NCBI RefSeq assembly: GCF_006345805.1
Contig: NC_042999.1
Span: forward strand, 63,550,001 to 63,614,000
Source of the DNA: Octopus sinensis
Lineage: Eukaryota
Length of the DNA: 64,000 bases
Reading direction: 5' to 3'
Each line of letters opens with the position of its first letter. The stretch's first letter is position 1. The notes below the pieces were generated by a model. That model saw only the letters and a program-made list of their open reading frames with translations, was not told the DNA's origin and ran no database searches. Shown here piece after piece: positions 46,912 to 60,520 of the stretch. The position numbers and the translations under genes are program-made.

Positions 46912-48886
46912 CATCGTCGTTTAACGTCCGTTCTCCATGCTAGCATGGGTTGGACGGTTCGACCGGGGTTCTGGGAAGCCAGAAGGCTGCACCAGGCTCC
47001 AGTCTAATCTGGCAATGTTTCTACAGCTGGATGCCCTTCCTAACGCCAACCACTCCGTGAGTGTAGTGGGTGCTTTTTACGTGCCACCTGCACAGGTGCC
47101 AGGCGGGGCTGGCAACGGCCACGTTCGGATTGGTGTATTTTATGTGCCAGCGGCACGGAAGCCAGTCGAGGCGGTGCTGGCATCGGCCACGAGTCGGATA
47201 GTGCTTTTTACGTACCACCAGACCAGGGATCCTGGCTGGTTCAATTCGATTTCGATTTCGCTTGCCCCAACATGTCTTCACAAGCAAAGGGGGTTGGCAT
47301 GGGTGCCTGTCGTACGGTCGCATTGGAGTATTTTACGTGCCACGGCCACGAGTCGGATAGTGCTTTTTACGTACCACCAGGCCAGGGATCCTGGCTGGTT
47401 CAATTCGGTTTCGATTTCGATTTCGCTTGCCCCAACATGTCTTCGCAAGCATGGGGGGTTGGCATGGGTGTCTGTCGTCGGATGAGGTTCTATATCGACT
47501 TCGCTTGCCTCAACCGGTCTTTGTGTCCAAGGGAGGAAAGGCATTCATAAGTGGGCTGGGCTCACTTGTCCTGCCTGGTCTTCTCACGTACAGAATATTT
47601 CCAAAGGTCTCGGTCTCTGGTCATTTCCTCAGTGAGGCCTAAAGTTCGAAGGTCGTGCTTCACCACCTCGTCCCAGGTTTTCCTGGGTCTACCTCTTCCA
47701 CGGGTTCCCTCAACTGCTAGGGATTGGCACTTTCTCACACACCTATCTTCATCCATTCTCGCCACATGACCATACCAGCGCAATCGTCTCTCTTGCACAC
47801 CACAACTGATGCTTCTTAGGTACAACATTTTTCTCAAGGTGCTAACGCTCTGTCGAGTATGTACACTGACATTACACATCCATCGGAGCATACTGGCTTC
47901 ATTCCTCACGAGCTTACGCATGTCCTCAGCAGTCACGGCCCATGTTTCGCTGCCATGTAGCATGGCTGTTCGTACACACGCATCATCCAGTCTGCCTTTT
48001 ACTCTGAGCGAGAGGCCTTTAGTCACCAGCAGAGGTAAGAGCTCCCTAAACTTTGCCCAGGCTATTCTTATTCTAGCAGTTACACTTTCAGCGCACCCAC
48101 CCCCACTACTGACTTGGTCACCTAGATAATGGAAGCTATCAACTACTTCTAGTTTTTCCCCCTGGAAAGTGACGGAAGTTGTTTTCTGCAGATTTTCGGA
48201 GGTTAATGCTCCCGAGCATCTGCCACATACAAAAACTATCTTCCCAGTTAGCCTACCTTTGACATTGCTGCACCTCTTATGTGTCCATAGCTTACACTGG
48301 GTACATCTTATAGAGTTTCTACCTACACCTTTTCTACAGATCGAGCAGGGCCATCTTCCTGAAGATATTTGTGGATTGTCTACCTTTCTACTTATTAGTA
48401 CTTTGGTTTTAGCTAGGTTGATTCTAAGGCCCCTTGATTCTAAACCCTCCTTCCACACCTGGAACTTCTCCTCCAGTTCTGATAGTGACTCAGCAATAAG
48501 AGCAAGGTCGTCAGCGTAGAGGAGCTCCCAGGGACAGCCTGTCTTGAATTCCTCCGTAATTGCCTGGAGTACTATGATAAATAGGAGGGGGCTGAGTACT
48601 GAACCCTGGTGGACCCCAACCTCTACTTTGAATTCTTCTGTGTTCCTCACCAGCCATTCATCTATCCCTAGTTTCCTCATTGACCACCAGATAAGGGATC
48701 GGGGGACCCTATCAAAAGCTTTCTCCATGTCAACGAAAGCCAGGTACAGGGGCTTATCTTTGGCTAGGTATTTCTCCTGCAGCTGCCTTACCAGGAATAT
48801 AGCATCAGTGGTACTTTTCCCTGGCACGAACCCAAACTGCATCTCATCTAAACTAACTCTCTCTCTAATTAGTTGGGCTATGACCC
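46910..48886 (-). mobile_element. Young 5'-truncated RTE LINE
   Basis: RT ORF plus complete 3' UTR and GAT-type tail, inserted at (TAA)n. Confidence 0.95.
47562..48886 (-). pseudogene. RTE reverse transcriptase (partial; RT + PHD finger + C-terminus)
   Basis: QFGF, FVDMEKAFDRV, GVHQGSVLSPLLF, YADD (48507-48518), YLG, RLRWYGHV, GRGRPRKTW; no endonuclease; the first ~20 aa of the listed ORF come from the flanking SINE. Confidence 0.92.
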
Positions 48887-48897
48887 TAGTTGGGCTA

Positions 48898-49115
48898 ATC
48901 CTTTCTATTATAGACACAAAGCCTGAAATTTGTGGGGAGGGGGACAATCAATCACATTGACCTCAGTACACAACTGGTACTTAATTTATCGACCCCCCAA
49001 TGAGGCTGAAAGGCAAAGTCAACCTCGGCTTAATTCAAACACAGAAAGTAGCAACAGGCAAAATACCTCTAAGCATTTCGTCCAGCATGCAAACGATTCT
49101 GCCAGCTAACCACCT
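48898..49115 (-). mobile_element. SINE group B
   Basis: CTGGTACTTAATTTATCGACCCC...GAAAGGCAAAGTCAACCTCGGC. Confidence 0.8.
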
Positions 49116-52599: not shown

Positions 52600-52905
52600 A
52601 AGTGCAATGGCTCAGTGGTTAGGGCAGCGGACTTGCAGTTGTAGGATCGCGGTTTCGATTCCCAGACTGGGCGTTGTGAGTGTTTATTGAGTGAGAACAC
52701 CTAAAGCTCCACTAAGCTCCGGCAGGGGTGGTGGCGATCTCTGCTGTACTCTTTTGCCACAACTTACTCTCACTCTTTTTTCTGTTGGCCTGCTCACTTA
52801 GCCAGCGGGGTGGCATCATTTGAAGGCTAAAACAATATGAAGCGCATTGTGACCAGCGATGTGTAGGAACATCTGATAGTTTGGTCTGTCACTGTGACGG
52901 TGATA
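52600..52905 (+). mobile_element. SINE group D head and body with a different 3' tail
   Basis: A box TGGCTCAGTGG, B box GTTTCGATTCC, GTTTATTGAG.GA.AACACCTAAAGCTCCA shared with 25326-25643. Confidence 0.85.
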
Positions 52906-53640: not shown

Positions 53641-53894
53641 AATCCAATAAAGTCATATCTCCCTTGGCTGTTTACTATCTTATAACGTATTGAAACAATT
53701 CAGAAATAGAGTGTAAAACTAAAATGACAAAATGATGAAGTGTACTTGGTTTCTGTTCATACAATGCTACATACCTCAGTTTATATATATAAGCTTCCAC
53801 AAAAACATATCTTAAAATTTTGTTTCAGTAACCCACTATATATATATATAGCAATACAAAAAGTTCTCCATTTGCAAGCATTCGGTCAATATAT

Positions 53895-54281
53895 CTGTCA
53901 CATTAAGTTGACAGCATACAACTACTTTATCGTATCACTACTGCATAAATCTTTCTGAGAGATTTAGAAATGTATTATTTCTATTTTTGAAATCAAGTGA
54001 ATGTATTTCACTAGAATAATTATATGTTTACAAGGGCTAGATGGGCATCTCCAACTAGCAAGCCATGTTACTCCAGACTGAAGATGAGCAATGACTCAGA
54101 AACTAGTCTCTGGATGCTGGCTTAGCTGGGTGGAGGTGCTTATCTCCCCCTTGTAAACATAAGGACACAGGAAATGTGTCAAGGCTGACAGGAAGTGGTG
54201 CTGCTTCCTGGGGCTAAATAGCAGTAGTATTATTCCCTTCATGGGACTGTCACATTAAGTTGACAGCATACTACTACTTTA
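53895..54281 (+). mobile_element. Retrozyme-like element: 352-nt monomer plus 35-nt terminal redundancy, with TSD
   Basis: 53895-53929 repeats at 54247-54281 (one mismatch); GTCAATATAT flanks both sides (53885-53894, 54282-54291); internal hammerhead and many hairpins. Confidence 0.8.
54062..54121 (+). ncRNA. Type I hammerhead ribozyme
   Basis: TCCAGA-CTGAAGA-TGAG-CAATGA-CTCA-GAAA-CTA-GTC-TCTGGA; intact core, GUC cut after 54108, stem I internal loop, palindromic ACTAGT stem III. Confidence 0.9.
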
Positions 54282-55234
54282 GTCAATATATCATTTAATA
54301 TCATCTTCATTTAGTGTAATTATTCCAAGCTGGCATTGTTTAGATAGTTTGTCAGGATTTGAATGATTCAAGGACTGCGATATGCTCTACTATCAACCTT
54401 GGCATGGTTTCTATGACTCTGATCACTTCCTAATACCAACCACTTTACAGCATGTACTAGGTGCTTTTTTTCCTGCCACCACTACTAATGAGGTTGTCAT
54501 GCAGTTTGCAGGACTATGGACCCCAAGAGAGGTAGCTTTATACTGGGAGATGAGGTGTTAAAGTATAAGTGAAGGGACCAGAGCAGAGCAGGCTTCTTGC
54601 TACAGGGGGGGGGGGAGCACATGGATACTCATATTTTAAAAGAGTGTGGAAAGGTGATTGGGGTGAAGCCAGGAAGAGATGAAAATAGTGGTGATAAAAC
54701 ATCTGTGTGGATCGTCAACATGCTTCACCATTTCATCGGATGAGGTGAGTAAAATTGAATGGGGCCAAAACTAGGAGCGTGAGTGAATGGGTGGGAATAT
54801 AATAACTGAAGAACAGATGTTGAATGGATGATAAGTAGGGGAGGTACGAAAGAGTAGGTTGGGTAGGGTTGATTCGTGGATGTAAAGAATAGTGGGCGAG
54901 GGGGAAGTGACCATTGGTGATAAGTAGACAAAGGAAAGGTGTGAGAAAGAGATATGACAAGTGGTTGAGTAGGTTGCATGAGTGTGTGAGAGAGAGAGAG
55001 GCAAGCATAGTATGTGAGAGATGTTTGGCAACCAAGGTGAGATGATTTGGTGGCTCAGTTGGGAGAAGAGGCAATATAAATATGGTTAGAGAGGACAGTA
55101 TTAAGGATGAGGGATGGATATCAAATGAAATGGTTCCAGATAGTTAGAAAGATTAGTGGCTTCAAGGAAGAACTGCAGTTAGATGGGAGGGAAATTTGAA
55201 TAAAGAATCCCATTGCACACACACACACACACAT

Positions 55235-58089: not shown

Positions 58090-60520
58090 TGTTTTGGCAA
58101 GAGTCATTGACATCCTGTGTGATTGGAAGAATGGACTAGCCAAGCTCTTATAAAGAATGGCGCATTGACTGAGAGTTGGTGGAAGTCGTAGGAGTCGTTG
58201 AGAATTCATGGAAGTTGTAGGAAGTCGCGGAAATCATTGAGAGTTTGTATTTCTTGGAGTATTGTATTTAGCAGAGTAATTTGAAGTACAGTGTGTGAAG
58301 ACAATCGTGTCTGTCCCAACTCATAGAAGGATATAAAAGTGGTAACGAGTTTATTCAAATTACTTTGGATGTGAACATTTTCTTTTGATACAAAACCAAA
58401 GAAAAATGAGTTAACATGGAAGACTTATTAGCCTCCGTGGTGCAGTTGCTACAGCAGTCACTGCAGCAATTACAACAACAAAAACTATACCAACAGTTGC
58501 TGGAATTAATGTTGAAGTCCAAAAATACTTCAGGTTTGTTCTCGTCAGATGGCATAGCAAATGCAATCACAGCACCAACAGTGTATATTAAGAAAATGTT
58601 TAATAGAATCAGAGTATCTGCTCGTATTTTCCAACTGGTTTTAATGAATGTCTTAAAACATTCCACTATGTGCTCGTATTTTCCAACTGGTTTTAATGAA
58701 TGTCTTAAAACATTCCACTATCCGCAACCTTCTGGAGGCTATTTTTGCGAAATTAAACAGTGGCAAAATATTTTCTGAATTGGATCTCTCTGACACATAA
58801 CTACAAATTAGAGTAGACAATGAATGCTTGAAGTACCTAACAGTTAACACACATAAAGGACTGTATAAGTACAACAGGTTACCATTTGGTTTAAAAGTTG
58901 CACCAGCAATTTTTCAACAGAATATGAATCCAATGTTAGTGGACTGTGAATTCGCAATTCCATATCTGGATGATATACTCATTAAAAGCAAATCCAGGGA
59001 TCAACACATCAAGCATGTAAAATATGTATTTCAAAAAATTAAAGATTACAGCTTAACCATGAGTGAAGAAAAGTATGAATTTTTCTTACTGGAAATAAGA
59101 TATTTAGGACAAGTCATTGACAGGAATGGACAACAACCTGACCCATCGAGGGCAGGCACAATTAAAAATATGCCTCCTCCAACTAATATAGTGACCTTAG
59201 AAACATCTTTAAGACTGGCAATTTATTACCAAAAGTATAACCCAAATATGCATACGGTTAGGACTCCGCTGGATAATTTGCTGGAAAAAGATATGGAAAG
59301 GAATTGGTCAGAAAATTGCCAAAAGGTGTTTGACAAAATTTTTTAAAATATTAATATCTGATTTGTTGTTAGATCACTTTTATCCTGCAGCAGGGTTTGT
59401 TGTAGCTTCAGACGCTTCTGAGTATTTGTATTGAAGCAGTAATGCTACATAAATATAAAGATGGTAGTATGAAGGTGGTGGTTCGTGCTTCACATTCTCT
59501 GATATCAGCAGAGCAAAATTATAGTCAAATCGAAAAAGAAGCTCTAGCAATCATTTTTGCCATGAAAAAATTTCACAGATTTTTGCACAGAAGTATCCGA
59601 TAATGATACACAGTTTACAGCATATGAGTTTTAAAATTTTGGCAAAATGTATGCAGTTGAACACATCTCTACTCCACCATATTACCCAAGATCAAATGGG
59701 CAAGTGGAACAGTTTGAAGATACATTTAAAAGGGCATTAAAAAATCAAGAAACAAGCTAGTTGATGACACAGCATTGATACAATTCTTGAGGGTTTATAG
59801 GATAACACCAAACCCAAACACTTGTTCAGGTAAGTCACCTGCAGAACTAATTTTTACTTAAAAAATAAAAGCAATTTTTGACAGATAAGAAAAGCAAATA
59901 AGGAAAACACTAAAATATGACAAAGTATTTTAATCTCAGTGACATGGTGTTTTTCAAAATATATAAAAATCGAAGAGAAGCTTGGGAAGGCAGAATAGTA
60001 ACAAAATGAATAGGCAAAAAAATGGGAATGCAAAAGACATTTTAAAAAGTTTTTAAAATATATGGAAAAAAGAAAAGATACCTGTGGAAGTGCTCTATGA
60101 CACCTTTGATATTCCAATGCCTTGAACTTAACGTAGCAGCACAAGAAAGAGGAAACAAACAGAATGGTTGAAAGTAGTGCCTAAATGGACGAGATATTAA
60201 ACTTCCCTAGGGAGTAAATCTCAAAGAAATGTTGTGGCAAGAGTTATTGACACCCCTGTGGGAGTGGAAGAATGGACTAACCAAACTCTTATAAAGAATA
60301 GCATATTGGTTGAGAGTTCATGGAAGTCATAGGAATTGTTGAGAGTTCATCGAAGTCATGGGAGTCGTTGAGAGTTTGTGGAAGTTGTAGGAAGTCATTG
60401 AGATCTTGTACTTATTGGAATGTCGTGTTTAGTGGAGTAATTTGAAGTACGTCATGTGAAGACAGTTGTGTCTATACCCACTTCGTGAAATCTATGTCTA
60501 ATGTATAGAAGGATGTAAAA
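58090..60520 (+). mobile_element. Ty3/Gypsy LTR retrotransposon, internally deleted and decayed
   Basis: LTRs ~58090-58338 and 60230-60520, PBS-like TGGTAACGAG (58340), 5-bp TSD CTTAG/CTTTG, gag, RT, RNase H and integrase remnants in Gypsy order. Confidence 0.92.
58760..59880 (+). pseudogene. Gypsy pol remnant (RT, RNase H, integrase)
   Basis: YNRLPFGLKVAPAIFQ, YLDD, SDAS, NYSQIEKEALAIIFA, SDNDTQF, PRSNGQVE; stops and frameshifts. Confidence 0.9.

Follow-up and report, generated by a model that had tools for sequence, protein, structure and literature searches.

The window, the whole 64,000-nt stretch of Octopus sinensis DNA analysed here, contains a near-monomeric copy of a dispersed, non-coding hammerhead ribozyme family, whose likely template was a 352-nt RNA circle, copied and inserted by an enzyme borrowed from a Penelope-like element (PLE). 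The probability of this reading is put at about 0.7. Support at the sequence level, for PLE mobilisation as well as for a circular template, comes from the ends of 136 insertions. It is about as likely as not that the dispersed copies thereby keep a record of the element that moved them and of the circularity of the RNA. The features of the window copy are as follows.

53885..53894, plus strand: left target-site duplication, GTCAATATAT, 10 nt (11 nt with the shared C)
53895..54246, plus strand: one 352-nt retrozyme-family unit, whose 5' end was truncated at the base of the 54234-54246 hairpin
53895..53930, plus strand: hairpin formed by unit 1-20, and the first of the two fixed 3' ends in the family (site A, unit ~35-36)
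53965..53984, plus strand: a further hairpin, with the second of the two fixed 3' ends in the family (site B, unit ~90)
54023..54161, plus strand: rod closing stem I, in which 54023-54067 pairs with 54118-54161
54050..54062, plus strand: stretch of insertion of an ORF1-only element, occupied in L073/L105, L162 and L226 and empty in the window copy
54072..54114, plus strand: type I hammerhead, with its core in the sequence and stems I and II covarying
54102..54107, plus strand: helix III in minimal form, with the palindrome ACTAGT through which two copies are predicted to pair
54164..54246, plus strand: three hairpins and the 3' side of a long-range helix, in the minimum-energy fold
54247..54281, plus strand: second occurrence of the first 35 nt of the unit, which stops at site A and marks the genuine 3' end of the insertion
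54282..54291, plus strand: right target-site duplication, the second GTCAATATAT

The sequence-only reading had described a 10-bp duplication enclosing one 352-nt unit and a 35-nt repeat of its own start, and all of these were recovered at the same coordinates. The duplication match reaches one base further, a C that is also base 1 of the unit. Unit positions are numbered from window position 53895, with the predicted cut after unit 214. The two versions of the unit start (53895-53929 and 54247-54281) are 97% identical, with one mismatch and a spacing of 352, and the copy consists of one arm of 387 nt with its 3' end at site A. Its 5' end falls at unit 349-4, where arm ends of the family occur in excess (15 versus 6.4 expected). 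The GC content of the unit is 40%. The longest stop-free stretches on the circle, 36 aa on the plus and 52 aa on the minus strand, bear out the claimed lack of an ORF, and an RT plus GIY-YIG ORF, sought in the window element, is absent. The claim that Pol III boxes and poly(A) are lacking holds for the B box and for poly(A), but a single A-box-like match lies at unit position 224. As this lone match is not conserved in relatives and is accompanied by neither a B box nor poly(A), a Pol III promoter or SINE was rejected. Elsewhere in the window, LINE reverse-transcriptase fragments lie at 47565-48947 (minus strand, also with a weak PHD-finger match) and at 58801-59343 (plus strand), and abundant short repeats, probably SINEs, occupy ~52600-52800 and 54338-54565.

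The hammerhead core is present in the sequence as had been claimed, with CTGAAGA at 54078-54084, GAAA at 54099-54102 and a GTC ending at 54108, after which the motif predicts the cut. Stem I is formed by 54072-54077 and 54109-54114 (6 bp), and stem II by 54085-54088 and 54095-54098 (3-4 bp). The ribozyme had been called complete, which is accurate for the core and for stems I and II but overstated for helix III, because the latter is minimal, a single A-U pair plus the palindrome ACUAGU, with a pairing probability of 0 in the monomer circle. Two such palindromic stretches are computed to form a duplex of -6.2 kcal/mol. Hammerheads with a helix III of one pair plus a palindrome are weak alone and active as dimers (PMC7229834; PMC4209133), and the window hammerhead is predicted to belong to this dimer-requiring type. 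Among the Rfam models there was no hammerhead match and no other ribozyme family on either strand; a match to MIR2599 (25 bits against a cut-off of 120) was dismissed as a chance hairpin. The minus strand carries neither a hammerhead core nor CUGAnGA, and the earlier label "viroid-like" is not supported beyond size and fold.

Folding of the copy as a linear molecule gave -150.1 kcal/mol (z -9.7; none of 100 shuffles reached this stability), and the circular unit gave -134.2 (z -10.4 against 60 shuffles), with 66% of bases paired. The rod and hairpins listed in the sequence-only reading appear in the minimum-energy fold, the 54247-54266 hairpin (as unit 1-20) being present in the circular fold and absent from the linear one. 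An additional hairpin, beyond those listed, is found at ~53965-53982. Covariation was assessed in an alignment of 18 hand-picked sequences from several families, with the structure drawn from the window copy. Changes on both sides are seen throughout stem I (6 pairs) and stem II (4 pairs) and in 18 of the 38 pairs of the main rod helix. The number of such both-side-change cells is 112, versus 41.6 in shuffles and at most 28 in slid controls; that 0 of 500 shuffles reach it is not a probability, since the window copy supplied the structure and the sequences share ancestry. RNAalifold finds stems I and II unprompted, and the fold crossing the unit junction closes and covaries across families. 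The base of stem II is poorly paired, being unpaired in 10 of the 18 sequences. The letters of helix III change between families yet a palindrome or near-palindrome is kept, and even within the window's own family L012 carries a different one. Circular folding and covariation analysis, both suggested in the sequence-only reading, came out in its favour (z -10.4; helices I and II covary across families). These compensatory changes point to selection on the RNA structure of the window repeat and its related families.

Sister families in the fetched loci are ~65-80% identical to the window unit. The largest of them (L175:690-1000, L189-L218), a younger family ~70% identical to the window unit, counts 1770 candidates, with best copies 93-96% identical; C replaces the core U4, helix III is longer, matches also stop at two sites, and inverted arms are present. 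More colinear sister families occur at L058:5961-6235, L076:1170-1444, L191:1121-1365, L243:1528-1772, L223, L249, L250, L252 and L276. Some of these have U at core position 3, and each has its own palindromic helix III.

A search of the organism's own genome (2.72 Gb) with the unit returned 2519 first-look candidates. Scoring was applied to 40 of these, and the best near-full-length copies proved 86-94% identical. A 24-nt hammerhead motif with up to 2 mismatches has 815 matches, a count that may include close sister families, versus 1 for the control. A hammerhead 23-mer has 156 exact matches and a unit-start 27-mer has 282, with controls at 0. When exact hammerhead 14-mers spaced by one unit are counted, only 5 loci have head-to-tail pairs (6 in all, the longest run being a trimer), and two intact cores on the same strand occur in 3 of 141 clusters. 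The 6 pairs against 815 motif matches therefore describe a family that is dispersed and near-monomeric in this assembly. It had been anticipated that a BLASTN search would reveal further copies in tandem multimers; hundreds of copies are indeed scattered through the genome, but multimers are rare. The only trimer found in the window's family (G000:C13:9688940-9689655) is a candidate source locus. The window copy itself is a dead end, since with one ribozyme and without a partner it cannot alone release a circle, as the sequence-only reading had recognised. As copies are 6-14% apart, the family may now be inactive.

The insertion anatomy of the family points to the mobiliser. From 148 fetched loci, 141 clusters were obtained, and 5 were dropped as duplicates or for identity below 78%, which left 217 arms in 136 insertions. 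Read in ribozyme sense, the 3' end is at A (unit 27-41) in 92 arms, at B (unit 80-99) in 83 and elsewhere in 42; both ranges were set after the first 30 loci and held in later sets. We infer that site A is a start of reverse transcription. The stretch from A to B forms an optional "tail" of family copies. In 76 of the 136 insertions two arms lie head to head with both 3' ends outward. Where both ends are at A or B (n = 51), the combination is A with B in 47, A with A in 2 and B with B in 2 (p ~1e-10). The targets are rich in AT: flanks are 77% AT, and (TA)n stands at the right end in 50 of 136 insertions. Exact, non-simple duplications of 8-14 nt flank 10 of the 136, compared with 0.4 in shuffled pairs, and simple-repeat duplications flank 28 more. 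Across 72 insertions, the arms of one insertion share 84 minority bases versus 34.5 for unrelated copies, and therefore derive from the same template subfamily. No upstream flank is shared between copies in the 141 clusters, except for common repeats and the ORF1-only element described below.

PLEs are recognised by partial tandems, by an inverted copy that is truncated at its 5' end and by a tail confined to one end (PMC8557442). In the anole, both strands of AT-rich DNA are nicked by the PLE protein, and the tail lies between the two internal sites at which this protein starts (PMC11167929). The octopus family has the marks of solo PLEs, namely two 3' ends, a one-end tail, an inverted 5'-truncated arm and an AT-rich target, and on this anatomy its copies were very probably mobilised by a PLE. 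The earlier claim that another element's RT made the insertion is strengthened by these PLE-type ends. The genome contains intact RT plus GIY-YIG ORFs of 775-781 aa among 5029 GIY-YIG candidates. One PLE family has copies 98% identical, inserted in (TA)n and with two 3' ends ~70 nt apart; other PLEs of the genome have head-to-head arms. The young autonomous family L051-L055 (e.g., L051:2872-5214), with copies 98-99% identical in (TA)n, carries an intact 781-aa RT plus GIY-YIG ORF; its 3' repeat holds a minimal variant of the hammerhead, and a long coding-like region lies upstream. An autonomous partner had been proposed as something to look for: intact PLEs are present, but in the 40 PLE loci checked, from at least 4 families, no terminal repeat homologous to the unit was found by blastn or profile. 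The hammerheads seen in the sampled PLEs are minimal and unrelated to that of the window unit. PLE fragments near 4 family loci were read as neighbours or targets. The hammerhead at L058 was considered as a PLE's own and rejected, being a separate antisense insertion of a sister family.

Evidence for the form of the template comes from the lengths of the arms. Of the arms that reach unit 220, 89 of 92 continue across the cleavage site, and therefore cut linear monomers are not the usual template. Crossing the site is no proof of a circle on its own, because PLE RT also uses uncleaved linear RNA; it does so in vitro, where unprocessed RNA is the main substrate (PMC11167929). Arms longer than one unit number 41 of 175, and 11 of 104 in a set unselected for length. 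Stop rates exclude the 30 loci that had been selected as full-length, three loci that are interrupted and all arms lacking a canonical end. The rate is ~0.5-0.7 per 100 nt up to 325 nt (0.62 at 250-325 nt) and 1.70 per 100 nt at 325-385 nt, with 2.56 for A arms and 1.27 for B arms. In a test stratified by unit position, with entry points adjusted to the way in which loci had been selected, stops beyond 325 nt number 28 versus 15.2 expected (136 arms; p ~5e-5), in an analysis that is post hoc, having been devised after the data were seen. The one-lap excess keeps p <=0.011 over five thresholds (300-352) and three bin widths. A direct comparison of B with A arms at the same positions gives 8 versus 4 ends and is not significant alone (p 0.16). 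Recombination between terminal repeats could remove long arms and add to the excess, which leaves unexplained the 9 stops at 334-347 nt. Stops that track the distance from the start, and not the place in the unit, would be expected if the RT meets its own product on a circle. Genomic multimers able to serve as linear templates are rare. These arm-length statistics make it probable that the copies were made from a circular RNA template. Of the earlier suggestion that an RT ran about 1.1 times round a circle, the one-lap stop excess agrees with the lap, and the start points proved not to be free.

Several apparent signals were discarded. A pile-up of 5' ends at the cleavage site was apparent in 72 insertions and gone later (3 versus 2.0 expected). 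The dimers at L011 and L019 were considered as two-lap products and rejected, since the units of the former have 16 minority bases in common, far more than they share with the locus's other arm and the sign of a later local duplication, and those of the latter differ at 36 of 308 sites.

RNA reads were available from three unstranded raw runs of one study. Summed depth over the unit is ~60-230, versus 0-3 in the left flank, and is equal on both strands. The joint of 54246 to 53895 is crossed by 14-16 reads in each run, and also exists as DNA in many copies. Neighbouring repeats have a depth equal to or above the unit's, which over the repeat at ~52600-52800 lies in the thousands. No common read starts or ends on the unit were seen in the three runs. 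Most reads are less than 95% alike, so they probably come from a relative or from other copies. The reads show the family's sequence in RNA, not a circle.

The following cycle would accommodate these data. A rare locus with two or more units may be transcribed by read-through, and two hammerheads are predicted to pair via the palindromic helix III and to cut out a monomer. A host ligase would close it, a step taken from the literature on other retrozymes, and the monomer circle should be stable since helix III cannot form there. A putative PLE RT-endonuclease would then nick AT-rich DNA on both strands, and cDNA would begin at the internal sites A and B, giving the one arm or the two head-to-head arms observed. 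The RT would pass the ligated cut site and tend to stop after about one lap, presumably at its own start.

The main alternative, which involves no circle, is that the unit is a terminal repeat or a deletion derivative of an unsampled PLE. Its copies would then stem from linear RNA, left uncleaved, that was transcribed from the few dimers, from the trimer or from an array missing in the assembly. Insertion ends of PLE type suit this alternative, as do the relationship of frog retrozymes to PLE terminal repeats (10.64898/2026.07.22.740005) and the preference of the PLE enzyme for unprocessed RNA in vitro (PMC11167929), and the PLE loci checked amount to 40 of 5029 GIY-YIG candidates. It is nonetheless unlikely. 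In none of the sampled copies does the unit form the terminal repeat of an adjoining PLE ORF, the hammerheads seen in PLEs are minimal and unrelated, the fold closes over the unit junction and covaries, and a linear multimer offers no cause for stops that depend on distance.

Two further explanations depart from a PLE-copied template altogether. The unit's size, its rod-and-hairpin fold and its many compensatory changes would fit the strong RNA selection of a true viroid-like replicon, multiplying from RNA to RNA and leaving genomic copies behind. Its minus strand, however, has no hammerhead core, neither strand matches another ribozyme family, read depth is modest, and retrotransposition alone accounts for the copies, which makes such a replicon very improbable. 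The model that the sequence-only reading implied literally, in which a LINE enzyme primes at random points of the circle and leaves freely permuted copies, draws on the 10-11 nt target-site duplication and on the LINE RT fragments in the window. It is largely refuted by the distribution of 3' ends, 175 of 217 of which lie at two fixed sites, so that only the 5' ends vary; the pairing of A with B, the overlapping inverted arms and the lack of poly(A) also speak against it. The earlier reading had counted fixed ends shared by all copies against itself, and this applies in part, to the 3' ends and not to the 5' ends. The preferred reading remains a ribozyme circle copied by a PLE enzyme.

Copies of the family also host a second mobile element. 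This 1.7-kb element lies in the 5' arm of the rod in several copies, flanked by target-site duplications of 9-17 nt; examples, often in tandem stacks, are L219:1209-2930, L073/L105, L162 and L223-L276. It has one ORF of ~445 aa, in which a CCHC knuckle scores below threshold. The Atlas clusters closest to this ORF are CCHC and ZCCHC3-like proteins, and by resemblance we take it to be LINE ORF1-like. The element ends near AATAAA, without poly(A), and its 3' motif has 192 matches in the genome. Among the first 30 of these 3' ends, a hammerhead comes next in 17 (at 22-39 nt where measured), a target remnant and then the next copy in 7, and other sequence in 6. With tandem copies counted once, 17 of 23 sampled sites are insertions into the retrozyme superfamily. 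ORF1-like coding sequence, 25-98% identical, lies upstream of all 30 sampled 3' ends, and no RT was found upstream of them; none matched the RT of the window. An ORF2 partner was considered and rejected when long spacings proved to be tandem ORF1-only copies. The host retrozymes belong to several families with differing letters at the site, and some composites of retrozyme and ORF1-only element have themselves been copied with inverted arms. An ORF1-only subfamily with a different 3' motif (L260-L272) forms head-to-tail stacks, often not beside a retrozyme.

A similar behaviour is known for target-specific Tx1-clade elements and their non-autonomous partners, which insert with target-site duplications into multicopy repeats, repeatedly at one site, and have an ORF1-type protein with a CCHC knuckle (PMC4494074). 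The targets listed for that clade are DNA and LTR transposons, snRNA and 5S genes, satellites and microsatellites (PMC4494074), and do not include ribozyme repeats, in which most sampled sites of the ORF1-only element lie. This element also differs in that no ORF2 partner was found at the sampled sites. In the literature searched, including the available text of PMC4494074, no retrotransposon that targets ribozyme repeats is described. The ORF1-only element would add such repeats to the known targets of site-preferring retrotransposons, and its specificity seems independent of shared DNA sequence. At about even odds, the genome holds three tiers of parasites: PLEs, ribozyme circles copied for one lap, and ORF1-only elements that target sites just upstream of hammerheads and then ride along. 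As exact start sites can be named, the circular template could be compared with linear ones in the existing in vitro PLE assay, and the one-lap statistic is applicable to any retrozyme family.

The retrozyme nature of the repeat, proposed from the sequence-only reading, is supported by comparison with the non-LTR retrozymes of animals. These include coral and mussel units of 350-390 nt and axolotl units of 330/350 nt (Cervera and de la Pena 2020, PMC7229834). The window unit shares with them its size (within 150-450 nt), non-coding nature, GC content below 50%, absence of LTR structure, type I hammerhead, a highly self-paired predicted circle (66% paired, z -10.4) and a target-site duplication longer than 4 bp (PMC7229834). 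Its helix III resembles that of the axolotl HHR_Amex1, with one pair and a palindromic tetraloop, and HHR_Amex1 cleaves well only as a dimer (PMC7229834). Animal retrozymes form tandem arrays of at least two ribozyme units (PMC7229834), whereas the octopus copies are nearly all dispersed near-monomers and the window copy has one ribozyme; it is a variant of the group because this tandem organisation is lacking. The two fixed 3' ends and the inverted arms belong to the octopus family and are not part of the account in the available text of PMC7229834. For cephalopods, 235 hammerhead matches have been counted, and only counted, in the squid genome (PMC6962438), and no retrozyme family or A/B insertion anatomy was found in the open literature; subscription journals, Repbase, Dfam and the supplement of PMC7229834 may contain older descriptions.

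With endonuclease PLEs, among them the PAc element of the anole, the family shares 5' truncation, partial tandems, an inverted 5'-truncated arm, a one-end tail, two internal start sites, AT-rich and (TA)n targets and a hammerhead upstream of the starts (PMC8557442; PMC11167929). Unlike PLEs, it has no ORF, and its tail is ~55 nt, compared with 30-40 nt (PMC8557442; PMC11167929); its hammerhead has a full 6-bp stem I within the rod, and the unit has no homology to the sampled PLE terminal repeats. PLEs have been proposed, without direct evidence, to move animal retrozymes from circular RNA (PMC7229834; PMC7761336). The closest parallel in organisation is provided by the solo (monomer) retrozymes of frogs, which are likewise dispersed monomers with rarer dimers and co-occur with PLEs (Li et al., 10.64898/2026.07.22.740005), and whose mobilisation, according to that preprint, is still to be characterised. 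The frog study links retrozymes and PLEs by distribution and phylogeny (10.64898/2026.07.22.740005); here they are linked by insertion anatomy.
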